A stretch of DNA of 64,000 nt from a virus (lineage: Duplodnaviria > Caudoviricetes), in the IMG/VR virus record IMGVR_UViG_3300021400_001341, positions 44,027-108,026 of that record; one strand, given 5' to 3'. Both the position numbers and the translations under genes were made by a program. Below, piece by piece: positions 40,911 to 63,164 of this stretch (its first letter is position 1; every line of letters starts with the position of its first letter). The notes below the pieces were generated by a model. It saw only the letters and a list, made by a program, of their open reading frames with translations. It had not been told where the DNA came from and made no database searches.

Positions 40911-40930
40911 TTTATTATTTCCTTTCATTT

Positions 40931-43003: not shown

Positions 43004-45823
43004 TTATGTCCTTCCGAAGCGTAATGCCAAGGAAATAATACGTTCTGACTCCTCCTCTTTTTTCTTGCGGTATCTTCTGCTGTCGTAGTCTTTCTTGATG
43101 CTTTCTCTGTGTTTCTTTTGACATGATTCACATCTGCATTGACGCGAATTCAGTCGTTCAAATGTTTTTCCACAGTCTTCACACTCAAAGAAACCATGAG
43201 AAGTCTTAATACATACATGATTGGTGTCCCACGATGGAACTCTTGACTTGCAGTCAGGGCAGATATCACAAGATATTAAATTGCGTTTTATATTCTGAAG
43301 AGCTATATCTCCATACACTCTCCAGAACATTTGTTTATGTGCGGCTTTATCAACATTTTCTCCGGCAAATAAATACTTCACAATATATGGATATGATTTT
43401 TCGAGCGGGCCAAACGCCTCTCTCATTTCCTGCGCAATCATTTCAGCAAGAAGTTCGTAACCGGCTATCTGTTCGCGTTCATTGATGTATGGAAGATCTT
43501 GAGATTCAATTACGTTTGAAATATTTATATTATCGAATTCGCAGAACAGTTGCGGAATTTCTGGTCTTATTACAACGCATGGTTCTGATATCAACATCTT
43601 CCAATTGAACTTTAAAATACCGGCATAATTCAAATCTATATTTCCAATATCTGTAAACGATGCGCAAATTCTATTCATTGTCGATGCGTTTGGCTTTGCA
43701 TAGTTTTTCTTAGGTTTTCCAGGTTCTTGTTTTCTTCCGTTTCTGCTAAATTGAAAAAAGTATGGTTGTCTTCCATGCTTTCCGCCGACGGCTTTGCTAA
43801 TTCTTTTTGCAACTTCTGGATATTTTTCATATGTATTAATCAATCCTGATTTCGCGCCGTCTATGACTTGATTGTTGTAGTATGTAAGCCAAGCTGCAGC
43901 CAGCCTGTCTGGCTTATCTCTATTCCACAATCTTGTCAGCATGTTGGATATTTCTCCAATTCCTGAACAGTCATGTGCTCTCTTAAGCCCATGAAACTGT
44001 CCTTCCTTTGAAATAACTTCAGGAGCAGCTTTATTTGCGTCATAAAATAGAGGGACAACATCGTATTTATTTATGTTTCTTTCCGCTATCTCTACTATTA
44101 GGGGATCTACGACAACATTTAGCTGGTCTCCATCGTTATCAAACTGAAGAATTCTTGAAATTAAATCATGACATGATGTATAAACACCATTTGTATAGAA
44201 CCATTCATATACATTGTTATCATGACATATATTTCGCACTGCATGCTCCATATATAAGTGAGGAGAACGCAGCACATCGGCTTTATCCTGTCTGCGGAAT
44301 ATCAAACATGCAATTTCGCCGTTTTTTAGCAAGCCTTGGGGATGTTCCTGCTTGAGGAACCAGTGCTCGCATGCTGCATACATGTCCGGTATTGCAAACA
44401 ATCTTTTGTTGTTTGTTTTTATTTTTCCTGATTTAGCGTCATACAACATTCGTTTTCGAATGTCTTTGAGCTGATTTCTGGTATACGCTTCTCTTAACAA
44501 CTCTGGATATAAAGCAAGAGCCGCCTTATAAGGCGACTCCGAAAGCTCGTTTGCGTGAAGCGTTCGCAACATTGCGTCTTTGTTTTTTGCTAAATTGCTT
44601 ATTCGATCATGCTCTCTGTGCGTAAACCTGTTTATTTCATCGTCAGTCATATCTTCCAGTGTTTGCAGAATCTGATAGTTTGTATATGTTTCTTCAATGT
44701 CTTCTTCTTCATATTGTGTTTTACAGAACCTTGCTCCACACTTTTTAAAGTTGTCTTTATATTCCTTCCATGTCTCATAGTATTTCCACATTTTAAACTG
44801 ACTTGTTGTAAATACAATCTGGATATTTTCTTTTTCAAGATCGTGCTCTAAACCCCAAGCGTCAGTTAAGACAGGCAGAATGTTATGAAATTTACAAAAC
44901 CGCATATAGTCGAATGAAGCAAGAAGTCCTTTAAACCATGGGCCACGAATCATGAAATTACTTCTTGATACGGCCGGAAGCATCATACCGCAGCCATCTG
45001 TATGATCAATCACAACAGTTCTTATATCTGTTTCACAGCTATAGTCAGATTTGATATACATCATTCGGTCTGTAACTTCACCTTCAAATTCAGGTATTAC
45101 AATACATCGATCTATATCAAAATCCGTCCATTCGTCTGAGGCTGAACTTGATAGCGCTACATACGCAAGATATTTGTTTACGTTCGCACCAGACTTTTCG
45201 TTAATTTTATCCCATGATAATCCGCATTCCAGTCTTTCATGAATCTTGTTCCACATATCATCAGACATAAATACACATTTATCTCTTCTGAGTTGCCCGC
45301 TGGACGCAGTAAAACATCTGTAGTGTTTATTCGATACCGTACCGTCAGGATTTAAAATCGGAAAATAAAAGCCATCAAGAACAAGCTGCTGTAGCACATC
45401 TGCAGACTTCCATTTAATCACGATTTTATCAAATGTATAATCAAGATGCGATAATCCCATTGCTCTTGATAGCTCTGATGAAAATTCTGTTATTTTCTTT
45501 GAAAACTTTAATGTTTTCCACGTTGCTCCTTCGGGAAATGGTTCGCTGTCTTTTTTATTGTATAAAATACTTTTCAGTCGTACTGTTCTTGGTTTACCGC
45601 TATGGAGTTTGACGAGTGCAACCAGCTTGTCGACGGCATCTTTCTTTTGTTTTTTTAACCAAGGAACTTTTTCGTTTGCAGGATCTTTATCCGCAAGTCG
45701 GTTAAGTTCATTCTTTGCTTCTACGATTTTCATATACAGATCATATTCCTGATCTGTAAACAAATCATAGTTAGTCAGCGACACCAGTCTGATTTGATTT
45801 TTCAGATAGCTCTTATCTGACAT
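43004..45823 (-). CDS. YonO-like single-subunit RNA polymerase (cellular RdRP superfamily)
   Basis: ASSGQLR, HTDGCG, IRGPWFKG, RSPHL, QFDNDGD, VIDGAKSG. Confidence 0.85.
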   Translation of the reverse strand: MSDKSYLKNQIRLVSLTNYDLFTDQEYDLYMKIVEAKNELNRLADKDPANEKVPWLKKQKKDAVDKLVALVKLHSGKPRTVRLKSILYNKKDSEPFPEGATWKTLKFSKKITEFSSELSRAMGLSHLDYTFDKIVIKWKSADVLQQLVLDGFYFPILNPDGTVSNKHYRCFTASSGQLRRDKCVFMSDDMWNKIHERLECGLSWDKINEKSGANVNKYLAYVALSSSASDEWTDFDIDRCIVIPEFEGEVTDRMMYIKSDYSCETDIRTVVIDHTDGCGMMLPAVSRSNFMIRGPWFKGLLASFDYMRFCKFHNILPVLTDAWGLEHDLEKENIQIVFTTSQFKMWKYYETWKEYKDNFKKCGARFCKTQYEEEDIEETYTNYQILQTLEDMTDDEINRFTHREHDRISNLAKNKDAMLRTLHANELSESPYKAALALYPELLREAYTRNQLKDIRKRMLYDAKSGKIKTNNKRLFAIPDMYAACEHWFLKQEHPQGLLKNGEIACLIFRRQDKADVLRSPHLYMEHAVRNICHDNNVYEWFYTNGVYTSCHDLISRILQFDNDGDQLNVVVDPLIVEIAERNINKYDVVPLFYDANKAAPEVISKEGQFHGLKRAHDCSGIGEISNMLTRLWNRDKPDRLAAAWLTYYNNQVIDGAKSGLINTYEKYPEVAKRISKAVGGKHGRQPYFFQFSRNGRKQEPGKPKKNYAKPNASTMNRICASFTDIGNIDLNYAGILKFNWKMLISEPCVVIRPEIPQLFCEFDNINISNVIESQDLPYINEREQIAGYELLAEMIAQEMREAFGPLEKSYPYIVKYLFAGENVDKAAHKQMFWRVYGDIALQNIKRNLISCDICPDCKSRVPSWDTNHVCIKTSHGFFECEDCGKTFERLNSRQCRCESCQKKHRESIKKDYDSRRYRKKKEEESERIISLALRFGRT

Positions 45824-45890
45824 CGTCCTCCTCCTTTACCGTAATGTTTCAATTTCAAATGATCTTCTTTTAAAACGAACGGTGTTCCTT

Positions 45891-45921
45891 TCCTATATAT
45901 CTATTCTCGAATGGTGGAATT
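45891..45921 (-). promoter_or_regulatory. Motif B putative phage promoter (AATTCCACCATTCGAGAAT-N3-TATATAGGA)
   Basis: 28/31 identical to 57978-58008; follows a terminator and precedes the RNAP gene. Confidence 0.65.
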
Positions 45922-45937
45922 ATGTTTTATCAAATAT

Positions 45938-45974
45938 AAAAAAATACGGGCACCGCTGTCTGGCGGCACCCGCA
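45938..45974 (-). terminator. Intrinsic terminator closing the Ubl-RT-ncRNA operon
   Basis: CGGGTGCCGC/GCGGTGCCCG stem plus U tract. Confidence 0.8.
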
Positions 45975-45981
45975 TAGTTCC

Positions 45982-46292
45982 TCTGTATCGCCGCAATCTA
46001 AATACGAAGTATTTAAGAAACGGAGCTTGCGATCCTTGAGTTCCTGAAATTGATTTCAGGAACGAAATGATAAAAGCTCCGTTTCTATCAGCGGATGCTG
46101 GACGGTGGCGACGTTGACGTCGCACACGGTCCGAGCAGTAGCGTAGCGAATGCGGGTTTAAGGCGCCTGTTCTGGGTTTCAACCCATGAACGTGGCGCCT
46201 ATGCCTGCAGAGCGTTAGCATAACCATATCATTATTCTTTCGATGACAGCAAAAGAGTTCTATATAGAACACCTCATTGCTTTAGATACAGA
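45982..46292 (-). ncRNA. Retron msr-msd-like ncRNA #3 (directly downstream of RT)
   Basis: Interrupted IR 45982-45997/46276-46292; G 46275 opposite G 45998; triloop hairpin 46236-46256; hairpins 46016-46086, 46096-46137 and 46161-46200. Confidence 0.8.
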
Positions 46293-47432
46293 TTAGATTT
46301 TCCCAGAAATATAAGCTTTCATCATTGTTTTGACGTCAACGCCCCATTTCATATTTGCTTTGTCGACAACCATTTTGAAATAGTCTGGCTCAATTTGCAT
46401 ATACCAGTTCATTTCACCATGAAGGTGCTGAACATCTCCGAGCTCCCAATATTTCTTGTTCTTTGTATCGAGAATAAACGAACATAATGCCGCCTTAAAA
46501 TATTTCTTTGCACGATATCCTACAGTGATATCAAAATTCCCATTTAGCATCATGCCAAGCATCCAGTTCTGGCCTTTGAACGAGCCGAAATGCGTTTTCT
46601 CGTCTTTGATTGTATACGGCGCATCAAACTCTTTAAATGTATCAATCATGAATTTGACAACATTCTTATATGGAAATCTTTCCTCTGCAGAAATATGAGT
46701 ATCGTCGGCATATCTTGTGTAAACCATTTTCCGTTTTGCAAATTCGTTTGCCAGCTTAAAATCAATAGGAATAAAGATCATATTCGTAAGAGTCGGACTT
46801 AATGGAGATCCTTGTGGCAATGCTCCGTTAAGGAACCCTAAAGAAAGAGCTTTCTTCAGTTCTTCTTTTCCGTCTTTGTCTTTAATTATTTCAGACAACG
46901 GAAATACCATTGACAGCATTTTCATAGTAAAATCAAGAGTTGTCGATGGAAAGAATCCTGACAGATCGGTTTTCAGATACCACTGAGACTTTGCTCTTAC
47001 GTGTTTCTTAGCAACGTCTTGTACGCATCTGCCAGGGATGTATGCATACGCAGATGTATGATATAAAACGCCGCATGTATCAGTTAGAATTGCCGATAAT
47101 CTGGACATAGCGTGTTTTAATTCATCGCATGGCGCATCTATCCGTCTGAATCCACCAGTCGCCTTAGGAATATAGAATGTTGTGTACATTGAGGATCTTT
47201 CTTTTTCGAATAAATGTTTACAATCCTCATTGAACCGTTTAAACTCGTGTATCATTTGAGATACGTTTATCTTATTCATAATATCGTAAGGAATAAACGC
47301 CATTTGTTTGGTTATAGTCGCAGAAGAATCAGATTCAACATTTAATTGATTTGGATTTACGGTTTCAAATAATACGTCTTCCCATTTCAGTTGTTTTGGT
47401 TTTCTATGTTGTTTTACAGTTACATAAATCAT
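46293..47432 (-). CDS. Retron-type reverse transcriptase
   Basis: YTTFYIPKATGGFRRIDAP, AYAY...VAKKH (region X-like), KTDLSGFFPS, LPQGSPLSP, YTRYADD, MLG (VTG-like). Confidence 0.9.
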   Translation of the reverse strand: MIYVTVKQHRKPKQLKWEDVLFETVNPNQLNVESDSSATITKQMAFIPYDIMNKINVSQMIHEFKRFNEDCKHLFEKERSSMYTTFYIPKATGGFRRIDAPCDELKHAMSRLSAILTDTCGVLYHTSAYAYIPGRCVQDVAKKHVRAKSQWYLKTDLSGFFPSTTLDFTMKMLSMVFPLSEIIKDKDGKEELKKALSLGFLNGALPQGSPLSPTLTNMIFIPIDFKLANEFAKRKMVYTRYADDTHISAEERFPYKNVVKFMIDTFKEFDAPYTIKDEKTHFGSFKGQNWMLGMMLNGNFDITVGYRAKKYFKAALCSFILDTKNKKYWELGDVQHLHGEMNWYMQIEPDYFKMVVDKANMKWGVDVKTMMKAYISGKI

Positions 47433-47445
47433 TATAATCTTCCTC

Positions 47446-47780
47446 GCGTAATCTAAAAATAATTGAAGGCGTTTAAGCTTGCAGGGACCCAGTCTATTTA
47501 TATTCGAGTTTAAGAGTATATTTATTGAAGTATAATGAATGTTAGTGTAAGTTTCACGACTTGTACGAGATTTGGTCTATAAATATAGTACTTCTTTTGG
47601 AACTTGATTTTATTAATTTTCTTGTTTTGATGTGAAAACGCGTTAAGTTCCAGCTTTACCCGAGTTAATAGATCCAGGGAACAGCAGCCGGCGCCTACAG
47701 CCAGCGATTATTCGCTGAGCAAGGCTATACAGCTCATTACATAAACTGCTTGATAGATAACTATCAGAACGACATTACGC
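47446..47780 (-). ncRNA. Retron msr-msd-like ncRNA #4 (between E1 and RT)
   Basis: 7-bp IR 47446-47452/47774-47780; G 47773 opposite G 47453; hairpin UGAUAG/CUAUCA; 8-bp GUA-triloop hairpin 47730-47748. Confidence 0.68.
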
Positions 47781-47781
47781 A

Positions 47782-48468
47782 TTAAATTTCTTCGAGCATA
47801 AAATTAAAGGCATCCATAATCATTGCCTGTTTTAATTCATGCTTTTTGACAAAGTTAATAAAGTTACATACTCCAACGTTGCACACCATGCGAACGGTCG
47901 GAGCAACACAAAGACTTACCCTGCAAGCCGACATCGGAACAGCTTTTTGAGCTTCTTCGTGTGTGAAATCCATAGTATTTAACAAGGCTTTCTTATGAGA
48001 CATATCTGACCAGTCAGCAGCATAATGCTGAGCATCTGTTAAACCTGTTCTAAAATCAAACATAGCTTTTATTGAATCGTTGAATTTATTTTCAGTAACG
48101 ATCTTTCTTCGCAGTTCAATATTGTCTACACACAGAAACACATACCCATATAGTTTTTCTCCTTGCCATCCTTCGCCAAATAGCTCAAGACATTCAGTAA
48201 GGTCTTTACGGTCTTCTTCTGGGACAATGCGGATCAGATTGTTAGCTACACATTCAACTTTAGGTTTATACAGATCATCACCTGTAAACATCTGATTGAC
48301 CAGATTCCTGTCTTCTACGACGTCAAAGTCGTATAAAGAAATATTTTTCAGGCCAAACCGAATCAGCAGTTCAGCCACAGTAGATCCTACAGAACCGCAC
48401 CCAATAATATGGATGCGGTCTGTAAATTCATCAGGGTTAAAAAAATCAAAAGATTTGCTTAAGTTCAA
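47782..48468 (-). CDS. ThiF/E1-like adenylyltransferase
   Basis: IIGCGSVGS, YDFDVVE..NL.NQ, CVDN, DFR; candidate catalytic Cys in PMSAC. Confidence 0.9.
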   Translation of the reverse strand: MNLSKSFDFFNPDEFTDRIHIIGCGSVGSTVAELLIRFGLKNISLYDFDVVEDRNLVNQMFTGDDLYKPKVECVANNLIRIVPEEDRKDLTECLELFGEGWQGEKLYGYVFLCVDNIELRRKIVTENKFNDSIKAMFDFRTGLTDAQHYAADWSDMSHKKALLNTMDFTHEEAQKAVPMSACRVSLCVAPTVRMVCNVGVCNFINFVKKHELKQAMIMDAFNFMLEEI

Positions 48469-48471
48469 TTG

Positions 48472-49317: not shown

Positions 49318-49343
49318 ATAATTCTCCTTTTAGAACGGCATGA

Positions 49344-50792: not shown

Positions 50793-50855
50793 CTTATAAT
50801 CTCCTTCGAAAAAATAGGGGGAGGGATCACAGTCCTCTCCCCCGTCGGGTGGAGA

Positions 50856-51461
50856 TTACATCAGCGTAATAGCTTCACGAATCTCCTGTTCCTTGTTGTT
50901 TGCAGCTTCAATCTTCTCAGGCACTTTGCCTTCCAGTTCGTTCAGGCGAAGCAGAGCGGTACCCAGCTTGTCAGTCACAGCCTGAACCTTATCTTCTACG
51001 GCAGGATCAATTACGGTAGTAATAACAGCATATCCGTCATGATCAGCACGAGTGGAGAACACAGCGCCATTGTTGTTCAGCGACCCCATGTTCTCGTCAA
51101 TGGCAACCAGGAAAATGGGCTCATTGTCCTCGTTGTACAGGCCAAAGTCAGGTTCGAACTTCAGAACTTTCTTCCAGTCATCCAGCTTCACACCAGACTT
51201 GATAATGCACGCATCACCAGTCAGAATGATCTTTGCGGCATTGTCCATCTTCACGATAGAAGACATACGGCAGGTCTCTCCGACACCCAGTTCACGGAGG
51301 GTCTTGTTCAGGTCGCCAACGCGCAGCGGCACAGAGTCGATAGTGTTCGTGCAGGAGTCGTAATTGACGTCATTCTCTTCATAGATTTCACGAAGAGTCT
51401 TAGCCTCGCTGGCGATAACGGTTTTACGTCCTGCGTTAGTGATGAGGGTGATCTTTACCAT
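50856..51461 (-). CDS. Ubiquitin-like (beta-grasp) domain (aa 1-75) fused to a second domain
   Basis: Beta-beta-alpha-beta pattern with DLNKTLRELGV (cf. ubiquitin RTLSDYNI), ending ..IVKMDNA; operon with E1/JAB. Confidence 0.6.
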   Translation of the reverse strand: MVKITLITNAGRKTVIASEAKTLREIYEENDVNYDSCTNTIDSVPLRVGDLNKTLRELGVGETCRMSSIVKMDNAAKIILTGDACIIKSGVKLDDWKKVLKFEPDFGLYNEDNEPIFLVAIDENMGSLNNNGAVFSTRADHDGYAVITTVIDPAVEDKVQAVTDKLGTALLRLNELEGKVPEKIEAANNKEQEIREAITLM

Positions 51462-51607
51462 GGTTTTCTTCTCCTTTTAAAATGTAGTTTGGGAATGAGT
51501 AAACGGAACCGCCTCCAGATTTTCCAGAGGCGGCTCCAAGCGGTCATTTACGACGACCGTTGCCGAAAACAACATGCTCCCGCAAAGCCACAGCAAGCAT
51601 GAAATTT

Positions 51608-52114
51608 TTAAATTACCTGAATTCCGATAACAGACAGAAAGTCATTTCCTACAGCATTTTCCTTTTCTGCTGCAAGAGCTTCGGCTTCCTGTTGTTCCAT
51701 AATCTTCTTTTCCAGTTGTTCAAAGACAAGCCTGTCGTCTCCGTCTGTATCTGCGTATCCGTCTTCATCGTCTTCATCGTCTTCTTCATAGCAATAAACG
51801 TCATATCCGCAGATAAATACGCTTTCTCCGTTTCTTGCATGTTCAAGCGAGTAGCCGCAGTCTTCTTTTTCAGATTCTGCCCTATTCTCAGCCCAGTATC
51901 TAAGTTCATTCATATATCCATCGTAGTTTAATTCTTTTAAAACATCTGATGGGTTAAACTCGTATCCACAAACTTCTACTCTATCGCTATCGTCAAGATA
52001 TTCATCAAAACCTTCGGTGTCGTCTGTCCAATAATCTGTGGAAATACATGTTTCAAGTACATCATCAACATCATCATATCTTTGATCTGGGTCGTTGTTT
52101 ATCAGATAGTACAT
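51608..52114 (-). CDS. Highly acidic hypothetical protein
   Basis: RBS AAGGAGG; D/E-rich. Confidence 0.7.
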   Translation of the reverse strand: MYYLINNDPDQRYDDVDDVLETCISTDYWTDDTEGFDEYLDDSDRVEVCGYEFNPSDVLKELNYDGYMNELRYWAENRAESEKEDCGYSLEHARNGESVFICGYDVYCYEEDDEDDEDGYADTDGDDRLVFEQLEKKIMEQQEAEALAAEKENAVGNDFLSVIGIQVI

Positions 52115-52322
52115 AATTCCTCCTTGATAATATCGGAAGCCGCATGCTCCCCATTGCAAACGGCTCCCGTAGTCGAATATTCCGATCCGGAGATATGAAT
52201 CGGAAGGCAATTGTTAAAATAAAATTTGATTCATTTATATATGAAAATATTTAAAAACGATATATAAATTAACCATAGAGGTTTTACCATAGACGTTGTT
52301 TGTTTTTGTTAGATTAGCCAAG

Positions 52323-52352
52323 TCATTCGTATTTGCCAGGGCTTTAGCCCGG
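52323..52352 (-). promoter_or_regulatory. Motif A copy (CCGGGCTAAAGCCCTG-N5-TAC-N3-TGA)
   Basis: One of five fixed-spacing copies. Confidence 0.65.
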
Positions 52353-54087
52353 GAAGATTCAAACGTATAAAATAAAAAAGAAATTTAAAAAAGAAATTGA
52401 AAACAACATTACTTGAAAAATGTAGAAACGTTGATTTTTAAGGATTTTGGCATTGCGTAAAAAAGCAAGATTAAAATTTTCAGAAGAATAAAACATCTTG
52501 AATTTCAGTTGTTTCTATCTGTCTGATAAATTCATTTATGTAATACTGTATATATTTTTTTATTCAAGCAAAATTTTTTACTTTGATGTATATACAGGAA
52601 TTGAATAATAAACGAACTTTTTCTTTTCTCCTTCTCTTTTTTCAGGTTTCTTTCTTGGAGGAGCTGTGATCGACTTAAGCCGCTGTGGTGTATGTATCGG
52701 ATTCATTGCCTTTCCTGCTGTAGAGTCAATATACCCTTCCTTGTTTCTCATATTTTTCCCTCCAACATTTTTCGATTGTGTTGCCAAGTCCCAATTAAAG
52801 ACCGTATTACATTTTTTTAGATCTGTTTTTAAACATCAAACCTCTTATAAAGTGGAGTATCTTCATTATTTATTTCGTAGACATCTGTAATTCTAATCTC
52901 TATTATGTCGTCCTGAGTTACGGGTATAGTCTCAGTTGTTGTAATCAAATCAGCCTGCTTATCGGCCTCTTCATTGTTATTTGCTTTTACCCGCAATGTT
53001 TTTACAGCATACAGTTCAACTGTATATTCATATTCATTCATAATCTTCTCCTATTAAGCTTGCAAAATCGATTTCAGAAACGTTGCCATCAAGATCGTCT
53101 TTATGCCACGACTGAAGATATTCCGGAGGATAAGCGTGAGAATCATCTCCAGACAGTAATATTTTTCCATTGTATTTACATCCTTCAACTTTGTATACCT
53201 TACCACCTACCAGTTTTAAAACTCTAGCGTTATTGTCGTTAAGACGGCCATTCATTTTAAGATATTCGTCTACTGTAATTATTCTTACATAATCACCTTC
53301 GAAAATGTCTTTTTGCCAGCCAGTCATTGTATGCCTCCTAACAGCGCTTCGTATGCTTTTTCCTCTATGCTGGCTGTGGCCACAGACATATCAAGAAGCT
53401 CAAGTTCATACTCTTCCCACATGTATTGGCTTATATGAACTCCTGCCGCAAACTCATCTTGTCGGCTTTCAGGTTTTGCTAAAAAAGAGATTTTGTATCT
53501 TCTTCCGACGATATTTTTTCGTACCTCTGTGATTTCACATATTTTGTTCTGCCACTTATCAATAGCAGAACCGCCCTGAACTTTGACTCCTTTAAGCTCG
53601 TTCGCCGCTTTAATTCTTACGTGATCGCCAATTGCATAGCTCATACAATCCCCCTGCGCCTCTGAAAGTCATGTTCCCGGTCGCGGACATGGGCGACCAA
53701 CAGCTTCTGTTCGTTGTCTGATAGGTCGTTATATTTGCATCCAAATATCATGGCCGCATATTTGTCCAAAGTCTTCATCTCGCTCTGAGTAAACATTGGA
53801 AATGTTACAAACATCGTAATATCTCCTTACAAATCTTGTTTTGCATCCTTTTTGAGAACGGTATCTGTTGTTTGTATGATGACACATATAAGGTGTTCGT
53901 CCTTTAGGATGATTCATAAACAAACCAGAATTCAAAGCAACATCACAGTTACCCCATTTTTCAGTTGCATCACACGGGTGCCAATGCTCACAGTTTGCGC
54001 AAATTCTTGCTTCGTTATTTCTTAGCTTCGAATTTATTCTATTGTGATAGCTCATAGTTTTCATTCCTTTTGTCTGATATTGAAAAG

Positions 54088-54190
54088 AGCTTCCGCCAGG
54101 ACTCGAACCTGGATTACTGTTGACATGTGTTCCAGTTGTATCCCGCTGTTTCAGAGACCACTCCAAACTTTCCCATTAAGTTACAGAAGC
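54088..54190 (-). ncRNA. tRNA-like RNA with enlarged anticodon/variable region
   Basis: GCTTCTG/CGGAAGC acceptor, ACTT-AATGGGA-AAGT D arm, CCAGG-TTCGAGT-CCTGG T arm. Confidence 0.5.
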
Positions 54191-54324
54191 AAAGCCGATT
54201 CCGTCATATATACATACAGCTATATGCAGTCGTACCTACACATAGTTAAGGAGTTCAATTTATATACCGCCCACTTGCTTTTGCAAGACTGGCCAAGATG
54301 TACGACACTCATCGGCGGTTAGAG

Positions 54325-54395
54325 TCGAAGATGTCAGAGTCGAACTGCTACTCGTCGTCCCAAGCGACGCGTGTTACCGTTACACCACATCCTCG
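54325..54395 (-). tRNA. tRNA-Pro (UGG), imperfect T stem
   Basis: GTGT/ACAC D arm, CGTCG-CTTGGGA-CGACG anticodon arm, TTCGACT loop. Confidence 0.75.
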
Positions 54396-54414
54396 ATAAA
54401 CGCTGGAAGGAATC

Positions 54415-54735
54415 ATACCGAACCTATTACATGAAGCCTATCTCGCCATAGCTTCAAAACCAGCAAATGCCAATCCTTCTTCCAGGGCCCGCTCAGGAGG
54501 CATTGGCTGAAAGTCACTATCCGTTATTAGCAGGCTAGAGATAGCGACATAAAGCCGGTAAACCGCAGGGATGTAAATCCGGCAACTTGCTTCTTCGTAT
54601 GGTTCCGGTCTGTCCTTTCGCCATACAACGTGCTTCTTAGCTTTCGCTCCACTCTGTTTTTCTACCCCTACTCTAGGCGCAAGTCTTTGTGCGTTTCGGC
54701 TGGACATAAGTAGACTCGGTCCAGACACTCGGTTT
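54415..54735 (-). ncRNA. Unidentified multi-hairpin structured RNA
   Basis: Six or more hairpins in a region lacking a credible ORF. Confidence 0.45.
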
Positions 54736-54746
54736 AAATCATTGTT

Positions 54747-54938
54747 TTATTTATTTCTTGGTATTGCGTTCCATTCTGTAATTGCTTTTAATCTTGCTTG
54801 AGGATCGCATTGCTCATCCCAGTCGGCATAATAGCCAGTCTTTGTGCATTTCTTTTTGCACTCAATCCAGGTATACGGCAATTTGTATCGTACTTTTGCC
54901 TGTTTTCCGCAAATCGGACACGGTTTAATGTCTTCCAT
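54747..54938 (-). CDS. Lar-like (restriction alleviation family) Zn-ribbon protein
   Basis: IKPCPICG..A ... AI.EWN. Confidence 0.55.
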   Translation of the reverse strand: MEDIKPCPICGKQAKVRYKLPYTWIECKKKCTKTGYYADWDEQCDPQARLKAITEWNAIPRNK

Positions 54939-56689
54939 CTTTTTGCCTTTCTTGAAATAGTCACGCCACAGGCGTTTCGTTCTCTTGATCCCAAATCTGA
55001 AACCAGTTAAGCTCGCGAATAAAGTCATTAAACTCATTTAAATCGTCAGCTTCCATCCAGTACATGTCACCGTCAATTTCTCCAAATGCCTCATACTTTT
55101 TATGTTGTTTTTCGGCTTTTTCAGTCATATAATTCCTCCAAACCTGGAAAGCCAGTCACAGGTTTTCCGTTTTCAGCATCAACTTGTCTGCCAACTTGGT
55201 AAATTTTCGGTGTTTTTTCAAAAAATAACTTTAAATCAGTCACGCTTACTTTTAAAAAATGGCATTTTTTAAACTAACATGCCGGTTTTCAGTCACGCTT
55301 ATTTAAAAAATGCCGAATTTTTAAATTCAGTCACGTTCAAGCCTTAATCTCCAAATAATCGACGATAAGTCTTTGATTCGCTTTTTCTCTTCTGTTATGC
55401 ATATGCCGTTTTTCATCATAAAAACTCGATTTCCGGTTGCCTTACAGCCCACAAACCAAGCTTGAAACTGTTTACCCGCTATTTCAAAGTCAACTAACGG
55501 ATAATCTTCAGGATAAGCAAAGCAGGTCTGCATCATGTTCTTAATCAGATCACAGTTATCAAAATCAATTTCAAGAATTTGTTCTGTATTCAGCTCAGCT
55601 ACAAGCACATTAATCCCACTCAATCATCTTGTTATCTGCCATGCGGTTAACAATTGTCGCAACACACTGTATTGCGATATTAAAATCATCTTGTTCTTCC
55701 TTTGGGATCTGAAGCCTGTCTTTCAACAAACATACGTAATTAAGCACGCAGTTCATTTCTGCCCGTGTCTTTCCGTGAAACATTCGTTCCATAAGACCCA
55801 CCCCAGTCATATTGATGATTCGAAGCCATGCTCATAAAGGATACGCTCGGCTTCATCTTCTCCTACGTTGTCAATCAGATGTGTTTTCAGATATTTATAT
55901 TCAAGCTTTCTTATTTCAGCATCAAGCCGGCTGTCTTCTTTTGTGTCTCTATAGGCTTTATGAAGGATCTGCGTATCCCTCAGCCATTCACTAACACTTC
56001 TGTAAACCGGCCTTCGGCATAAGTGCATTGGACTCACCTTTCTCCCTTGAGAAAGCCCTCCAAAGTCTCTATTGTCAAAATGCCCCAATCCAGAATTTCA
56101 ATCAGGTCTTTATATCTCCGATCTATGCAACCATATAACTTATCGTTATCCTTATAGTATGGACATTGTTTGCATACGTCATCTTCAGCTGTCATATTGC
56201 ACAGCTCTACAGACTTTTTTGCTTTCAAAATTTTTTCTTTATTCATTCTTTTTACCTCATCCATGGAGATTCAGGATCATAGATCCATTTCTCTTTCATA
56301 ATCTCCTCGTACATCTTTTTCAGCCGTTTCAGCGTATTAGACATCAGCTCTTCCCTTGCCTTGTGCAAGTCGCCGAACTTTGACGGGTAACAGTTTGTCA
56401 AAATCCGGACCATAACTTCCATTTCTTTCCTTGCGGAGGCTTTCATTTCTTCGGTGGTCATAGTTTTCCTTTCTCCGGCTGAAACTCGGCCATAATTCTG
56501 TCTGCACTTTCTTCCCCGGCCAGTTTAACCAGGTACATTCTTATATACCTTGCTTCAAGTTCTTTAATTTCATTCTTCAGCCCTTGGTCTCTATTTGCCG
56601 CATGGTATGCGTCCATAAACAGACGACTATCTTCTATCCACCCGGCTAAGTTCTTCTCCCCGGCCTTATAAAAGCGCACAACAGCTTCC

Positions 56690-57290
56690 TCCTTATTTAT
56701 AGTATTTAAATAAATAAATTATTTTTTAGAATATGAATTTCCAGTCATTAATAGATAAGTTATTCTAGTAGTACGATATAAGTTACTATATGCAGTAATT
56801 GCAATATATTCTCTTCGGTAATTGAATGGGAATACTAATTCCCTCTCAAGATAAAAAGAAATTTATAAACTATATTTTCAGTCATTACAAAATAATCTAA
56901 GTAATAATCTAATAACACACTATCAGTCATGTTTAAGTTTATTATAGAAAAAGAATTTAATTCATATATATTCATATTTAAAAAATGAATTTCCGGTTAT
57001 TATAGAGGATTTAAATAAAAGATTGTTTTCTTATTTTTATGAAAGATATATTTTTAGTTATTATACAGGAAGAAGATATATTTTTAATTGTTAGATGGGA
57101 GGAAGATATTTTTTTAGTTATAATACAGGAGGAAGATATATTTTTAGTTATATAATTCCCTATCAGTAATTCAATTAATCCTGTTAAATAATATAATCAA
57201 TATTTCCATTCATTGTTGAATAATTTATTAGAAAGAGAATAATTCTTCTTATATTATATATATTATATATAAATAAGAAATATTTCTTCA
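56690..57290. other. AT-rich non-coding region, candidate replication origin
   Basis: Very AT-rich, no ORFs, contains direct repeats. Confidence 0.5.
57041..57152. repeat. Four 30-bp tandem direct repeats (iteron-like)
   Basis: AAGATATWTTTTTA at 57043, 57073, 57103 and 57133. Confidence 0.85.
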
Positions 57291-57515
57291 GAGATTCGGT
57301 CTGTCACAGCCATATGGCCTGCGCAGGAGCTGGATGACGCAATGTGATCCGAACAGAGAGAAGAAATACAGACTTTCACAGACAGTCCGCCAGCCCTTAC
57401 AGAAAGGAGGTGATGCTTTTATGGCACAAAGAAGGTTTTGACTGCAAGCTTGAGTCCTCTCTTACGGGATATTCACCCCGTATGCAATCGTCTCGCTGTG
57501 AGACGGGTCTCTCTT

Positions 57516-57546
57516 TCCTATATAGCCATTTTCGAATGTGTGAAAA
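57516..57546 (-). promoter_or_regulatory. Motif B copy (diverged)
   Basis: TCCTATATAGCCATTTTCGAATG on + strand. Confidence 0.55.
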
Positions 57547-57977
57547 AACATTTGATCAAATATAATCACACGGCACGAGGTACGCACTAAAAAGCAGCAT
57601 AATGCGTTGGAGATGCCGTGCCGACTCCCTACAGCACGAGAGACGCTGGTTCGCATCAGCATCGTCCGGGTAAGCCTGACAAATTTTATATGCTATCCGG
57701 ACTTAAGAGGTGATGTCGCCTGAGTTGCTGTATTACTCTGTATGAAATTGGCAGCGCAGGGAGACGAGCCCTGCATTAAGACTGTCGTGTCACTGCATGA
57801 CGGCAGACCTGGCTTAATAGAGTGCCGGCCTGGTCAGCGAGAAAATTTTTTAAGCGAGTCGAACCGGTGGAAGATTGGGGGCCGGGAAAAGAGGAGCGGT
57901 CTGAAAAGCAGCAGGTCTGGAAAAGAGCGGGGCCTCATCAAAAAAATAGAGCCAAGCAAAGGCATGGCTGTTCTCTC

Positions 57978-58008
57978 TCCTATATAGGCATTCTCGAATG
58001 GTGGAATT
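57978..58008 (-). promoter_or_regulatory. Motif B copy
   Basis: Near-identical to 45891-45921; also directly after a terminator (58017-58050). Confidence 0.65.
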
Positions 58009-58067
58009 TCCCGAAGAAAAAAATGGGGCACAGCCAATCGGCCATGCCCCTGTTTATCGGGTTCTAC

Positions 58068-58445
58068 TTACTCTTCCTCGAAGGGAAGCTCCGCAGCGGT
58101 CTCACCGGCTTCAGCAGCCTGACCGTTCGGATTGGCACCGCTGAACTCCACCATGTCAGCACGCAGTTCCAGGCGAGCGCCAGGCTGACCGTACTTGTTG
58201 ATGTAGGTGTTCAGGTGAATCGGACCACGCACCTCAACCCGGCGACCCTTGCTCAGGTACTTCGCGCAGCTGTCGCCCAGACCACGCCAGGCATTGACAC
58301 GCACGAACTCGGGTTCGGCACCTTCGCCAAAGCTGTTACGCACGGCGATCGTGAAATTGGTGACGGTAACTTCCTTATCACCGGACTTCACCTTGTTGGA
58401 AATGGGATCAGCAGTCAGATAACCAGTCATGATAGCGCAATTCAT
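58068..58445 (-). CDS. ssb: Second single-stranded DNA-binding protein
   Basis: MTGYLTADP, FTIAV, FVRVNAW, YLSKGRRV.V.G, ELPF tail. Confidence 0.9.
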   Translation of the reverse strand: MNCAIMTGYLTADPISNKVKSGDKEVTVTNFTIAVRNSFGEGAEPEFVRVNAWRGLGDSCAKYLSKGRRVEVRGPIHLNTYINKYGQPGARLELRADMVEFSGANPNGQAAEAGETAAELPFEEE

Positions 58446-58511
58446 AGTTTTTTCTCCTTTCAAATTTAAAGTTTTTGTTTGTTTTGCGCAGCGTGAGGGT
58501 TTTCGTTTCCC

Positions 58512-58541
58512 TCATTCGTACCAACCAGGGCTTTAGCCCGG
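58512..58541 (-). promoter_or_regulatory. Motif A copy upstream of ssb
   Basis: TCATTCGTACCAACCAGGGCTTTAGCCCGG on + strand. Confidence 0.65.
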
Positions 58542-58850
58542 TCGATACAGGAATGTTTGGAAAATAGGGATATTATGAATCGGAATTAATGGAAACCGTT
58601 GCTCTCCCGTTTTGCCGGAGGTGTTCCTCGAATTCGGGAGGCAACTGCATCTTGTGCCTGGACACGTATGGGCCGACAGGATCGTCAGCGTCAGCGTTTG
58701 CTCTGATCCGGAGATACTGCTTTTCAAGAGCATAACGTCTGTCTTCCTCTGCCTGCTTGTGAAACCGTTCTGCCAGCGTAAGACCGGAAATAAAAGAACA
58801 GACTATGAGAAACAGCGTAATAATCAGGATCGTAACGAACTCTACTGCTG

Positions 58851-58991
58851 TCATAGCCAATCCTCCCATGGATCGACATACTCGTCGAAATACTCTTCTG
58901 CCCACGCGTCGAAGAACTCGTCTTCGTCATGGGTCAGATCTCCATCCGGCATTTCTCCGGTGAAGATGTCGTCAACAATCTCGTAGTTCAT
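58851..58991 (-). CDS. 46-aa extremely acidic peptide
   Basis: RBS GAAGGTGA; no K or R residues. Confidence 0.6.
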   Translation of the reverse strand: MNYEIVDDIFTGEMPDGDLTHDEDEFFDAWAEEYFDEYVDPWEDWL

Positions 58992-59419
58992 CCACGCATC
59001 ACCTTCCTGATCTGCTCGCGGGCGATAGCATCGCAACGCTCGTTATAAACTTCGCCGGAATGACCCTGAACTTTGACGACCTTGATTTTGTGGCCGCCCT
59101 TGTTGCCGGCTTCGATCAGCTGAATCCAGAGATCCTTGTTCGGGAAATCTTTCTTCTTCAGCCACGCCCTCATGGACTTACAGCCTGTAACAACATACTG
59201 GGAATCAGTAACAACCTGAACCTGGCACGGCATCTTGAGAGCGAGTACACCCTGAATCACAGCGGTGAGCTCCATCCTGTTGTTAGTCGTGCCAATCGCG
59301 TTTCCGCGGATGACTTTCTCGTGCTCTCCGAAAACAAGAATCGCACCGTAGCCGCCGATGGCATTCTTAGCCCCGTTATGGGAGCAGGCGCCATCGGTAT
59401 GAATCGTGACCTGATACAT
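58988..59419 (-). CDS. rnhA: Ribonuclease HI
   Basis: HTDGACS, TTNNRMEL, TDSQYV, NKDLW, GHSG..NERCD. Confidence 0.95.
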   Translation of the reverse strand: MYQVTIHTDGACSHNGAKNAIGGYGAILVFGEHEKVIRGNAIGTTNNRMELTAVIQGVLALKMPCQVQVVTDSQYVVTGCKSMRAWLKKKDFPNKDLWIQLIEAGNKGGHKIKVVKVQGHSGEVYNERCDAIAREQIRKVMRG

Positions 59420-59458
59420 GGGGTTCAACTCCTTTTTTATATAGTGACCGTTGATTGG

Positions 59459-59488
59459 TCATAAGTACCGAGCAGGGCTTTAGCCCGG
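59459..59488 (-). promoter_or_regulatory. Motif A copy upstream of rnhA
   Basis: TCATAAGTACCGAGCAGGGCTTTAGCCCGG. Confidence 0.65.
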
Positions 59489-59821
59489 CGGGAAAATTTT
59501 TTATTAAGGGGAGCGTAGCCGGGTAATTTTTTCCCGCAGGAAATGGATGCGTTTTGGTGGCGCTCAAAGTGGGCAGAGGATGGGTCTCCGTAATCAGACG
59601 ACCAAATACTCATCCGAAAGCTGGAAGCGCCGGAAGGCCCCTTAGAAGCCCGGAAACGAGCATCGAAAAAAATGGCAACGGATAGACGCTCGCCGACGTC
59701 TTTAATCCGTTGCCGCTGAAGGAGGTGTCGGACAGTTTAGCGTCATGTCCGGGACAAAAGGAGGAGGTTCATGAAGAAGCGTAACCGACCGGCTATTAAG
59801 CGGCAGCCAGCTACGATAAGG

Positions 59822-59977
59822 TCATTTGACTACCTGCACCCGCAGGTCACAGAGGTCGGAGCCAATCCACATGGTTCCGTCACGGGCTTCGACGATCTTG
59901 TCGAGGAAGTTCAAGTCCTGAGTGTTGTTGACAACGGTCTGTTTGCCGTCTGGATGTACTGCGATAAGCTGAACCAT
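59822..59977 (-). CDS. 51-aa hypothetical protein (not in ORF track)
   Basis: RBS GGAGGT; MVQLIAVHPDGKQ...; preceded by motif A. Confidence 0.6.
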   Translation of the reverse strand: MVQLIAVHPDGKQTVVNNTQDLNFLDKIVEARDGTMWIGSDLCDLRVQVVK

Positions 59978-60016
59978 ACTGCTACCTCCAAGTAACATTA
60001 TTCAGAGCGAACTCTG

Positions 60017-60046
60017 TCACCAGTACCAAGCAGGGCTTCAGCCCGG
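60017..60046 (-). promoter_or_regulatory. Motif A copy
   Basis: TCACCAGTACCAAGCAGGGCTTCAGCCCGG. Confidence 0.65.
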
Positions 60047-60280
60047 TAAAACAAAACAACAATGAGATATAGACAAAGTATGATTAAACGGCAAAAAATA
60101 TATGGCTCACCTCTATGGGCTCACCTTAAAATATATAAAAATTCCAGATCTGGACGTCCAGGTCTGGAAGGAATTTAGAACCTGAAGAGGCCGTCTCCAT
60201 CGGAGGCGGTCTATTCAGATTGGGTAGTTTAACGTCCTGCCCAGGACGGCCATCTCGGAGAGGCTCCCGTGTATCAAGAT

Positions 60281-60676
60281 TCAATCGTACTCTGTAACGG
60301 AGAACATTTTGATTCCACGGTACGTGTAGAACGCTCTGTCAAGCTTCTTTGCTCCAGCATCGGTCATGGTGGCGTGTCTAAGTTCGAAGCATCCCAGGCT
60401 GTCCCAGTCAATCAGCTTTGCGCCAAGGTAGCTGTCGGACTTTCGTCCTTCCCACTCGGCAGTTGCCCACTCAGGCCAATCAGAACTCTTCAGATTCTCC
60501 GGCTGATGATTCTGGCGAGCGTTCCATATCTTAAACGAGTTTTCATTCACCGTGATGATGGGGCATCCAAGGCTCATTAAGTTTTTCCATATGATGTTGG
60601 CGGTATTCCTGTCGTTTTCTTCTATGCAGTCGATTTCGCCAAACTCACGGTCTGTTGTTACAAAGATTTTATACAT
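60281..60676 (-). CDS. Hypothetical protein
   Basis: RBS AAGGAGG before MYKIF. Confidence 0.65.
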   Translation of the reverse strand: MYKIFVTTDREFGEIDCIEENDRNTANIIWKNLMSLGCPIITVNENSFKIWNARQNHQPENLKSSDWPEWATAEWEGRKSDSYLGAKLIDWDSLGCFELRHATMTDAGAKKLDRAFYTYRGIKMFSVTEYD

Positions 60677-60698
60677 GTTGCATCCTCCTTCAAAATAA

Positions 60699-60728
60699 TC
60701 AAAAGTACCCGCCCGGGCTTTAGCCCGG
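60699..60728 (-). promoter_or_regulatory. Motif A copy right after the early RNAP gene
   Basis: TCAAAAGTACCCGCCCGGGCTTTAGCCCGG. Confidence 0.65.
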
Positions 60729-60743
60729 ACGGGAAAGTAAACG

Positions 60744-63164
60744 TTAGTCAGCAGAGAACACTTCGTCATCGTCGTCGAAGTCTTCGAACTCTTCATCGAA
60801 GTTGTCTTCGGCACGCTCGATGAAGCAGCCGTTCTTCTGCAGGGCTTTAACGGCCCGATCACCAAACACACGCCAGAAGCACTGCTTGGTCACGGTGTCC
60901 ATGCCATCAGTCATCTTCGAAGCGAACATGAGCGTGACAATGGAATCGTAAGCGGCGTCCAGAATGCTGTCATCGCTGACGCGGGTCAGATCGCGATCCG
61001 CATACAGGTTGCGGACGTAGTACACGATCTCCTGCAGAGCTTCATGCTTGCAGGCTTCTTCCCACTCGTCACGATGCATCTTGGCGTCGGCGGTGCTCAT
61101 CAGAGCGTTCCACTCGTCAGAGTGACGGAACGCGATCTGATTGAAGAGCCCGGTATCCTCATAGGTACCAAGCTCCATGTTGAATTTGCCCTTCTTGAAC
61201 AGACCAGGAACCAGCTTACGATCAGCCTTGATCTTCAGCATGTACGGGTCGAAGATCTCATCTTCGATACCGTCGATGGTCAGTTCTTCCGGGACGTTCT
61301 CCTTGACGGCCTTGGAATACATGTCTAGGAAGGAGCCGCTATACTGCACACGAGGAGTGCCCGTGTACTTGCGGATCTCATCCCAATAGGGATCATCTGC
61401 AGGATGCTCTGCATCAGCCTTCGCGTAACGGGCGAACTCAGGCAGCGGAACTGCAGACAGCGCCTTCACGGGTTCAGGCTTATCGATCTTCACAGCCGCG
61501 TGCTTCGCAGCATCGATCAGCACATTACCCGCATAGGTCAGCCAGTCGCAGGTATCACGGTTGTACTGGCTGTTCCACATCTTCGTCATGGTGTCAGCAT
61601 AGATACCGATCTCAGAACCATGAAGAAGATTGGTGATGAAGCTGCAGATCGCAGACTTCGTGATCGCAACCTTCTCTGCCTTACCGACATCCCAGTCAAT
61701 CGGGATATTCTTCAGCTGTTCGAAGGTGCGATTAACCAGATCGAGCAGATACTCGTCCTGGCTGTACCAGACATGGTCTCCATCATAATCCGCACGGATC
61801 TGAATGGTGGTCATGTCGAAGATATTGATGAACATCGTGGGACCTTCGCAGAAGGGCATATCCATGTTGTTCATCAGGACGACGTGAGCGTTATCCAGAT
61901 GAGGATTCCTTGTCACGTCTACAGGGCCTTCATGCGCTGCGTGGCAGCAGCATTCTCCGGCCTTCAGGAAGCCCTTGATCTCGAGACCGAAGAGGTGCTC
62001 AACGAAGGCAACCATATCCGGAGCCAGGAAAGCGTTGTATCCCAGTTCAGGAATACGACCACCAAGCATGTCCATACGCTTGGAGGCATACTTCTCCTGA
62101 ACGGACTTCCGGGTATGCCGTTCATTCAGGAGAGCCGGATACATCCGGACAGCGAGACGATGCTCACCACGCAGAAGCTTTGCGGCTTCCTGCGGATCGT
62201 GATACTTGAAGACGGTAGCCTTAGCGTGCTGCATGAAATGCAGAGCGTCGTCTTCAGTACCCATCAGGGTCTGACCCTGCTGATAGGGCATACCCTTGAG
62301 GCGGGGCTTGTGCTCACGAACGCACACGCAGATGGTGTGACCCATCTGCTCGAAAGCATCCTGATACTGAGTCCAACTCTGATAGAGCTTAGCTGCTTTG
62401 AAGCAGGACTCTGTGAGGATAACATCGACGTCCGCAAGGCGAACGGTGTTGCCCCAGAAATCTTTGAACTCCGGCTTGATGCCATGTTCGTAGGCGAACG
62501 CGGCAATATCCTTGAAGTTCACTGCCTGCACGAACGCCTTGAGCCACGGGCCACGAAGAGTGCAGGATTCTCCGTTAGTCAGCGTTCTGCGAATGATGCC
62601 AAATCCATCGAAAGCGTTGATCTCGCAGGAACGATCAACGTCATGGGTCACATCGCCGCTGACGAGGTCAACGACGGAGTTAACAGTGACTGAGCCATCC
62701 GGGATGATCGCCACACGGCGGATATCGATAGTTCTGCCGAACACCTCGACGAAAGGCTTGGAAGCAGAACTCAGCAATCCCAAGTACGCCATGTACTTGT
62801 TGATCGCAAGCTTGATGTCTGCAGTCTTGAGGCCGCAAAGGCACCATTTGCCCATGATGGGCAGGAGCTCCTCCCGGAGCCAGAGGGACGTGGCCTTCCT
62901 GATATCGGAAGAGCCGGCCTCGAACGGGAAATACCGATGACCGTTGTGGTCGAAGCCTTGAGCGCACCAATGGGTGAGCTTGCTCTTGGCTTCGGCTTCC
63001 TTGGCTTCAACGTCAGACTTCTTGCCTGACGGAACCTCGGCACAGATCTTGATGATGGCGTCTTCGACGCCGATGGTCTCCAGCTTGCGAGTGAACTCGG
63101 AAGAGAAGACGGCGATCTTCTCATAAGTGTTGCTGGCGACGTTGTACTTTACGATAGTATCCAT
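60744..63164 (-). CDS. Second YonO/RdRP-like RNA polymerase
   Basis: AGSSDIRK, AFDGFG, LRGPWLKA, RNPHL, RADYDGD, LIDAAKH. Confidence 0.82.
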   Translation of the reverse strand: MDTIVKYNVASNTYEKIAVFSSEFTRKLETIGVEDAIIKICAEVPSGKKSDVEAKEAEAKSKLTHWCAQGFDHNGHRYFPFEAGSSDIRKATSLWLREELLPIMGKWCLCGLKTADIKLAINKYMAYLGLLSSASKPFVEVFGRTIDIRRVAIIPDGSVTVNSVVDLVSGDVTHDVDRSCEINAFDGFGIIRRTLTNGESCTLRGPWLKAFVQAVNFKDIAAFAYEHGIKPEFKDFWGNTVRLADVDVILTESCFKAAKLYQSWTQYQDAFEQMGHTICVCVREHKPRLKGMPYQQGQTLMGTEDDALHFMQHAKATVFKYHDPQEAAKLLRGEHRLAVRMYPALLNERHTRKSVQEKYASKRMDMLGGRIPELGYNAFLAPDMVAFVEHLFGLEIKGFLKAGECCCHAAHEGPVDVTRNPHLDNAHVVLMNNMDMPFCEGPTMFINIFDMTTIQIRADYDGDHVWYSQDEYLLDLVNRTFEQLKNIPIDWDVGKAEKVAITKSAICSFITNLLHGSEIGIYADTMTKMWNSQYNRDTCDWLTYAGNVLIDAAKHAAVKIDKPEPVKALSAVPLPEFARYAKADAEHPADDPYWDEIRKYTGTPRVQYSGSFLDMYSKAVKENVPEELTIDGIEDEIFDPYMLKIKADRKLVPGLFKKGKFNMELGTYEDTGLFNQIAFRHSDEWNALMSTADAKMHRDEWEEACKHEALQEIVYYVRNLYADRDLTRVSDDSILDAAYDSIVTLMFASKMTDGMDTVTKQCFWRVFGDRAVKALQKNGCFIERAEDNFDEEFEDFDDDDEVFSAD

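Follow-up and report, generated by a model that had tools for sequence, protein, structure and literature searches.

Two diverged YonO-family RNA polymerases in one clade of ruminant-gut siphophages and the transcription relay that they may form

Why a phage should keep two RNA polymerases of one family is the question raised by a 64,000-nucleotide stretch of viral DNA, the last 64 kb of the 108,026-bp IMG/VR record IMGVR_UViG_3300021400_001341. The phage genome held by this record is called G000 here, and the 64-kb stretch is called the window. Two genes of the window encode the proteins P0001 (type 1) and P0002 (type 2), which a first-pass annotation, made from the sequence alone, had described as two paralogous polymerases resembling YonO of phage SPbeta and the cellular RNA-dependent RNA polymerases (RdRPs). 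Coordinates are given in window numbering, except for genome positions, which follow the numbering of the whole record. The two ends of the record overlap by 107 bp, and both polymerase genes lie on it. The sequencing runs that hold the sequence indicate the ruminant gut as habitat, and the phage belongs to a clade of 105-150-kb siphophages from this environment that possess giant tape measure proteins. The answer favoured here, which we regard as rather probable, is that both enzymes are active RNA polymerases that act one after the other, type 2 in the early stage and type 1 in the late stage, the latter as YonO does in SPbeta.

The relationship between the two proteins is distant. They share 24% identity over 797 aligned residues (BLASTP, E 2e-49), in agreement with the high divergence noticed at first pass, and the ordered motifs DGxG, RGPWxK, RxPHL, DxDGD and IDxAK are indeed present, in this order, in both: DGCG (276-279), RGPWFK (293-298), RSPHL (519-523), DNDGD (562-566) and IDGAK (654-658) in P0001, and DGFG (186-189), RGPWLK (204-209), RNPHL (419-423), DYDGD (459-463) and IDAAK (550-554) in P0002. 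Two-barrel RNA polymerases are defined by eight invariant residues, namely an aspartate of the first barrel, R/K...K, R-x-P and D-x-D-x-D (PMC2919709). These residues are D276, R293, K298, R519, P521, D562, D564 and D566 in P0001 and D186, R204, K209, R419, P421, D459, D461 and D463 in P0002, and all eight are unchanged throughout two 30-sequence alignments, one per type. When the GenBank phages were searched with tblastn, P0001 matched SPbeta YonO at 32% identity over 96% of the length (E 3e-116), while the match of P0002 to YonO was partial (28% identity, 65% of the length, E 1e-44). Each matching record contained a single such place (39 records for P0001 and 32 for P0002), so that the earlier description of YonO as a single-copy gene holds for deposited phages. 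P0001 also passes the gathering cut-off of the Pfam RdRP model PF05183 (35.3 bits, cut-off 23.8 bits), and 28 out of 30 close relatives of P0002 match this model at E <= 1e-3, the best of them at 9.5e-11. Both proteins match PHROG 8308, which has no assigned function.

Sequence searches of solved structures gave nothing useful for either protein, nor for the N-terminus of the tape measure protein discussed below. AlphaFold2 (AF2) models were built on the alignments of 30 relatives and are predictions of usable quality (pLDDT 86 and pTM 0.78 for P0001; pLDDT 77 and pTM 0.66 for P0002). In these predicted models both proteins have the double-psi-barrel fold. The top Foldseek matches are plant RDR2 and Neurospora QDE-1, with 7rqs (E 3.6e-16) and 2j7n (E 4.7e-14) for P0001, and 7w82 (E 2e-14) and 2j7n (E 1.7e-12) for P0002. 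The next matches are the non-virion RNA polymerases of the P23-45 type, at E 1e-6 for type 2 and about 1e-3 for type 1. As judged from conserved residues and predicted folds, we are moderately confident that both proteins are catalytically competent single-chain two-barrel RNA polymerases of the YonO family, and both are most likely DNA-dependent. The first-pass annotation had also considered that one of the enzymes might act on RNA templates, in view of the structured non-coding RNAs (ncRNAs) of the phage. Such an enzyme would copy these ncRNAs by an RdRP activity like that of QDE-1 or RDR2. The closest solved folds are in fact those of eukaryotic RdRPs, and the surroundings of the type-1 gene include ncRNA loci and a reverse transcriptase. 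Nonetheless, the fold match only reflects which family members have solved structures, the nearest characterised relative, YonO, strongly prefers DNA templates (PMC5467207), and nothing in either protein or neighbourhood points specifically to RNA templates or ties either gene to the ncRNAs. The suggestion has thus found no support, and we consider it very unlikely.

Accessory parts set the two types apart. As in YonO, type 1 carries an N-terminal extension of about 100 aa and, at the C-terminus, a CxxC..CxxC zinc ribbon followed by a basic helix; the ribbon cysteines of P0001 (C881, C884, C898 and C901) are invariant in the 30-sequence alignment. The type-2 clade has neither the N-terminal extension nor the zinc ribbon, and its C-terminus is a conserved D/E-rich tail containing phenylalanines.

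Phylogenetic trees (FastTree with 97 rows and IQ-TREE with 36 rows) resolve three well-supported lineages: type 1, type 2 and a third one, type 3, represented by P0004. The phylogeny proposed at first pass as a check places type 1 within the YonO clade, which includes SPbeta YonO (99% SH-aLRT) and seven sequences of this phage group that form a subclade, and type 2 outside it, in a deep clade of its own that has 100% support and whose stem measures about 1.57-2.0 substitutions per site. Type 2 is abundant in metagenomes, where it forms more than 200 clusters at 55-96% identity, and the only name that applies to it is the RdRP of Pfam, NCBIfam and PHROGs offering none. The P0004 family comprises only 8 clusters in a collection of 5.8 billion proteins. 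NCBIfam contains no model for any of the three lineages.

The pair is not peculiar to one record. An alignment-based scan of IMG/VR retrieved ten contigs with a P0002-type gene, whereas the scan with P0002 as a single sequence gave no match. Five relatives (G006-G010), all longer than 100 kb and one of them a 150.8-kb record with terminal repeats, contain one intact gene of each type per genome, with the P0001-type proteins at 57-62% identity. G011 (132.7 kb) has an intact type-2 gene together with a type-1 gene in three pieces. The syntenic 111-kb genome G001 encodes a P0001 orthologue (53% identity), and its type-2 slot is occupied by the third lineage. In the type-1 clade as in the type-2 clade, G000 groups with G006 as its sister, and the two types have diverged to a comparable extent (61% vs 65% identity); therefore, the two genes appear to have been inherited jointly, each being constrained by purifying selection. 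On this comparative sequence evidence, the two types are ancient paralogs that are inherited together in this phage clade. A different explanation for the pair would be that the polymerases are functionally redundant, or conditional alternates that serve to escape a host inhibitor or to infect different hosts. Full catalytic motifs in both types are compatible with this, and the very different lineage that fills the type-2 slot in G001 suggests a replaceable module. It is nevertheless an unlikely account: every near-complete relative that was examined retains the pair, both genes having diverged to a similar degree, and redundancy does not predict the systematic differences in codon use, position and upstream signals described below.

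As a side observation, the type-1 gene is divided into two or three pieces, separated by stop codons, in G011, G002 and G003, and yonO is likewise annotated in parts in phi3T-like Bacillus phages. Introns, inteins, homing endonuclease inserts or decay are possible causes.

The two genes are located in compositionally different parts of the genome. At window position ~57.3 kb the GC content steps up, from about 40% to about 51%, and the type-2 gene (54% GC) is found within this GC-richer block, the early island of Table 1. Such an abrupt jump could reflect an assembly chimera or the recent insertion of a foreign GC-rich element into an AT-rich phage. However, a 10,779-nt Logan contig, assembled independently from the probable source run, covers 50858-61636 with zero differences and spans the junction, the read depth being even on either side in that assembly; in addition, a GC-rich island with type 2 and a distant type 1 recurs in six other IMG/VR genomes from other samples. 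Owing to the bridging contig and this recurrence, a chimera or recent insertion is rejected as hardly credible. In four of five relatives the type-2 gene is also 10-15 GC points above the type-1 gene, and in G008 the difference is about 4 points. In G001 the GC content is likewise bimodal, with an early and replication arm (24-84 kb) of 51-55% and a structural arm of 40-46%.

This contrast extends to the codons. GC content at third codon positions (GC3) is 0.34 in type 1 and 0.68 in type 2, with overall gene GC of 38% and 54%, which bears out the difference in codon bias that had been reported for the pair. The phage encodes four tRNAs (Table 1) that read the codons ATA, TTA, CAA and CCA. Among the Ile, Leu, Gln and Pro codons, these four account for 1 of 154 in the type-2 gene and for 68 of 202 in the type-1 gene. 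They are absent from the RNase H and single-stranded DNA-binding protein (SSB) genes of the island, the SLOG gene has a few ATA codons (14% of its Ile codons), and the tape measure and tail genes use all of them heavily. The same codon split is present in G006, G007, G009 and G010. The simplest reading is that the island genes, type 2 included, are translated before the phage tRNAs are available, and type 1 and the structural genes afterwards.

The leftward arm to which the island belongs starts at a non-coding divergent region (genome positions 1130-1600), P0002 being approximately the seventh gene of the arm. Downstream of the type-2 gene, RNase H is kept in 8 of 10 related loci, and SSB is also conserved in relatives. 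This neighbourhood allows another interpretation, in which type 2 would be a replication-linked polymerase making an origin transcript or R-loop primer, processed by RNase H and stabilised by SSB, with type 1 alone transcribing the phage. Both genes do lie directly downstream of type 2, and at its end the island borders on a region of 19% GC that contains 30-bp tandem repeats (56.7-57.3 kb). On the other hand, the phage has a separate Toprim-DnaB primase-helicase (39060-40928), the type-2 gene is about 3.5 kb away from the AT-rich region, with several genes between, and five hairpin elements in front of separate genes (motif A, below) fit gene expression better than a single origin transcript. 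We judge a replication role to be unlikely, and the succession of an early type 2 and a late type 1 remains our preferred explanation.

With regard to these surroundings, the region from 56700 to 57300, directly after the island, contains four 30-bp tandem repeats, AAGATATATTTTTAGTTATTATACAGGAGG, together with further AT-rich repeats, and could be a replication origin or a control hub. A second SSB gene (41373-41756) is located in the replication module in addition to that of the island, so that two SSBs parallel the two polymerases.

Two classes of sequence signals accompany the polymerase genes (Table 1), zero copies of either being expected by chance. Motif A, CCGGGCTAAAGCCCTG-N3-GGTAC-N3-TGA, is present in five copies, all of them on the strand that encodes the leftward arm, and the distance to the gene that follows is 20-50 nt. 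Four copies are in the island, and none stands ahead of P0002. These hairpins could be promoters, terminators or RNA processing sites. The exact motif A was not found in relatives. Analogous, different hairpins were noticed in G001, G006, G007 and G009, where they lie downstream of the type-2 or type-3 gene: GGCGCAAGCGCC-N11-TGAA in G007 and G009 (three copies each), CGGCGCAAGCGCCG followed by TCGATAAGGTGAGAA in G006, and GCCGCCCGAGGACGGGCGGC followed by N-CCATGGTGA in G001 (two copies).

Motif B, CATTCGARAA-N4-TATATAGGARAG, has three exact-pattern matches in the window, one of them before the type-1 gene and preceded by an intrinsic-terminator-like hairpin; a further copy precedes the late operon. 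Variants of it are found before the type-1 gene, at the island border and before the late operon in G006, before the type-1 gene and at the island border in G007, and before the type-1 gene in G010. G001 contains one variant that precedes the late operon by about 400 nt, and two more at other places in the arm. Since motif B remains similar in G001, where type 2 is replaced, while the hairpins differ between phages, motif B would be paired with type 1, and the partner of the island elements would be a polymerase that is either injected or specific to the island, a pairing suggested by few genomes. The region upstream of yonK in SPbeta was read as well, and no clear counterpart of motif B was seen there. 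Distinct from both motifs, the 11-mer TTAAAGAACAC appears five times (11176 and 11321 on the plus strand; 17101, 17269 and 17413 on the minus strand), each time with a ribosome-binding site and start codon 10-25 nt further downstream, and is a candidate regulatory motif.

Table 1. Polymerase genes, signals and neighbouring features of the phage (window positions unless stated otherwise)
Feature	Position	Strand	Remarks
Type-1 RNA polymerase P0001	43004..45823	-	939 aa; canonical YonO clade, orthologue-grade
Type-2 RNA polymerase P0002	60744..63164	-	806 aa; deep sister clade of YonO
P0004, third two-barrel lineage (type 3)	G001 68268-71081	-	937 aa; DNDGD; P0002's position and orientation
Motif B copy, CATTCGAGAATAGATATATAGGAAAG	45888..45913	-	~65 nt upstream of type-1 start codon
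Motif B copy, island border	57975..58000	-	
Motif B copy, island border	57513..57538	-	
Motif B copy, late operon	genome 1543		~60 nt before first gene of 57-kb rightward structural arm
Intrinsic-terminator-like hairpin	45944..45975	-	13 pairs then TTTTTTT; immediately upstream of motif B and type-1 gene
Terminator-like hairpin	58025..58050	-	closes island behind SSB gene; motif B directly after
Motif A hairpin, copy 1	52329..52352	-	outside island; upstream of 200-aa open reading frame
Motif A hairpin, copy 2	58518..58541	-	upstream of SSB gene
Motif A hairpin, copy 3	59465..59488	-	upstream of RNase H gene
Motif A hairpin, copy 4	60023..60046	-	
Motif A hairpin, copy 5, CCGGGCTAAAGCCCGGGCGGGTAC	60705..60728	-	8 nt past type-2 stop; also in terminator scan
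GC-rich early island	57300..64000, onward over record end to genome ~1130	-	51% GC vs 40% elsewhere
SLOG (YAcAr) family protein gene	63256..63597	-	directly upstream of type-2 gene; PF10686, E 3.8e-19
RNase H gene, island	58988..59428	-	downstream of type-2 gene; PF00075, E 8.5e-30
SSB gene, island	58068..58463	-	last conserved island gene; PF00436, E 1.2e-14
tRNA-Gln(UUG), tRNA-Ile(UAU) and tRNA-Leu(UAA) genes	23424..23943	-	
tRNA-Pro(UGG) gene	54324-54395		

A further polymerase-like domain may be present in the same phage. The tape measure open reading frame (ORF), 5,006 aa long, carries the sequence GEDFDGD, and conservation with the giant ORFs of G001, G006, G007 and G008 extends over its N-terminal ~1,500 aa. 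In the tape measure ORFs of five relatives, RxP...Q..DxDGD is invariant. Comparison of the tape measure with the YonO alignment by hhalign aligned the RxP...DxDGD region with 72% probability (E 3.5e-5). This N-terminus has no sequence match in Pfam or the PDB and no BLASTP similarity to P0001 or P0002, the profile comparison alone giving a modest signal. This third domain, fused to the tape measure, probably also takes part in the transcription programme.

In the succession that we favour, type 2 would be the early enzyme, its gene being promoter-proximal within the leftward arm and requiring no tRNAs other than those of the host for its translation. Type 1 would be made later, from a gene that stands behind a terminator and motif B and is rich in phage-tRNA codons, and, like YonO, would probably transcribe the 57-kb late operon, which bears motif B too. 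The island itself would probably be read first by the RNA polymerase-like domain of the tape measure protein or by the host RNA polymerase. The two-step cascade put forward at first pass is consistent with the early island, its independence of phage tRNAs, the terminator and motif B at type 1, and motif B at the late operon, although we infer, rather than show, enzymatic activity, temporal order and the assignment of motifs to polymerases. A more far-reaching and clearly more tentative version is a fully host-independent relay of three two-barrel polymerases, with timing enforced in both transcription and translation. An injected polymerase fused to the tape measure would read the GC-rich, host-tRNA-compatible island; type 2 of the island would open the next gene class, including the phage tRNAs; and type 1, gated by the terminator, motif B and the phage-tRNA codons, would amplify itself and fire the 57-kb late operon.

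Several points weigh against the succession of two active enzymes. P0002 scores 22.9 bits with PF05183, just under the cut-off, so that the profile check suggested at first pass worked out for P0001 and narrowly fell short for its partner. If type 1 reads motif B, its own gene stands behind its own promoter, and read-through or another polymerase is needed to start it. Type 2 could equally read motif B, which would leave type 1 with no assigned promoter. Instead of promoters, the motif A hairpins may be terminators or sites of RNA processing, and a conserved terminator motif is known from the pre-early block of the Thermus phage P23-45 (PMC10770324). In RNA libraries of the source sample, sparse contigs match P0001, SSB and RNase H and not P0002, a library of this kind being able to contain DNA. 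Finally, the codon contrast is weak in G008 and G001, because the whole early arm of these genomes is GC-rich.

Regarding the remaining surroundings of the two genes, a reverse transcriptase gene (46293-47432; RVT_1, E 2e-19) is situated two genes upstream of type 1, with the terminator between. The divergent control region (genome positions 1140-1540) is strongly strand-asymmetric: its early sense strand is rich in purines and T and contains several TTGGA/GGAGA units, and the asymmetry is also seen in the closest relative, G006. Polypurine tracts are known from P23-45-type phages. Scans for sigma-70-type promoters remained at chance level, and no such promoter was found in the divergent control region; this counts in favour of the relay, but weakly, as these scans say little about a host other than E. 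coli. The sole type-2 match in GTDB, the 9.7-kb contig JAGCQO010000179.1 from a yak-reticulum Paludibacteraceae metagenome-assembled genome, was not trusted as evidence of the host; it is probably a phage fragment that was binned wrongly, given the strong GGAGG ribosome-binding sites of the phage.

Phage programmes with several polymerases are already known, for instance in coliphage N4, P23-45 and the jumbo phages, and YonO is already characterised. YonO of SPbeta is a single-chain two-barrel DNA-dependent RNA polymerase that transcribes the late genes, a long operon, as one unit (PMC5467207). Type 1 resembles it in the N-terminal extension, the catalytic motifs, the CxxC..CxxC ribbon and the clade to which it belongs, and the single promoter-like motif before the 57-kb late arm recalls the transcription of that long operon as one unit. 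In contrast to SPbeta, which has one copy, the phage studied here adds a deeply diverged paralog with an acidic tail and with neither ribbon nor N-terminal extension. The promoter of YonO is undefined, so motif B is not comparable with it. P23-45 possesses a virion RNA polymerase fused to the tape measure (gp96) and a non-virion one (gp64), its late genes being transcribed by the host enzyme (PMC10770324). Common features are a giant tape measure protein (~5,000 aa), here with a putative N-terminal two-barrel polymerase-like domain (RxP...DxDGD), a free-standing two-barrel polymerase gene in a block that here, as judged from position, GC content and tRNA independence, may be the first to be transcribed, and distinct classes of motifs that would mark the stages. 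However, P23-45 has one free-standing polymerase, while here there are two, which belong to the YonO family and not to that of gp64, the second being the likely late enzyme. No sequence similarity to gp96 or gp64 was detected. The jumbo phages contain paired multisubunit RNA polymerases, one virion and one non-virion (PMC7824862). The likeness lies in two paralogous two-barrel polymerases that would split early and later transcription; those enzymes are split multisubunit beta/beta-prime homologues in phages above 200 kb, whereas each of the enzymes described here is a single chain, belongs to the RdRP/YonO branch and comes from phages of 105-150 kb. Coliphage N4 uses three successive polymerases (virion RNA polymerase, RNA polymerase II and the host enzyme), of which the phage ones are T7-like single-subunit polymerases and the host one serves the late stage. 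Its early promoters are short hairpins, the use of which depends on SSB. The island with its repeated short GC hairpins, fixed downstream sequence and SSB gene is N4-like in this sense, the hairpins here being putative promoters only, and the polymerases are two-barrel rather than T7-like.

No description of two YonO-like genes in one phage was found in the literature, the coverage of which was incomplete, so that absence is not proven. Within the literature searched, a clade with two free-standing YonO-family paralogs appears to be undescribed, and so do the type-2 clade itself, its ribbon-less, acidic-tailed architecture, and a polymerase split coupled to a codon and tRNA split.

Within the RdRP-like branch of cellular-type RNA polymerases, YonO is, to our knowledge, the only member from a bacterial virus that has been characterised. 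Two diverged enzymes of its family in one phage clade would constitute a natural experiment on the promoter specificity of minimal two-barrel polymerases, in which the accessory parts differ (ribbon and basic helix vs acidic tail) and two non-random classes of motifs are available as candidate targets. The strategy of the Thermus phages, a polymerase fused to the tape measure, would be extended to an unrelated lineage of gut phages, with three polymerases in all. From a practical point of view, the avoidance of phage-tRNA codons in the early island may offer a simple and transferable marker for temporal classes of genes in uncultured phages.

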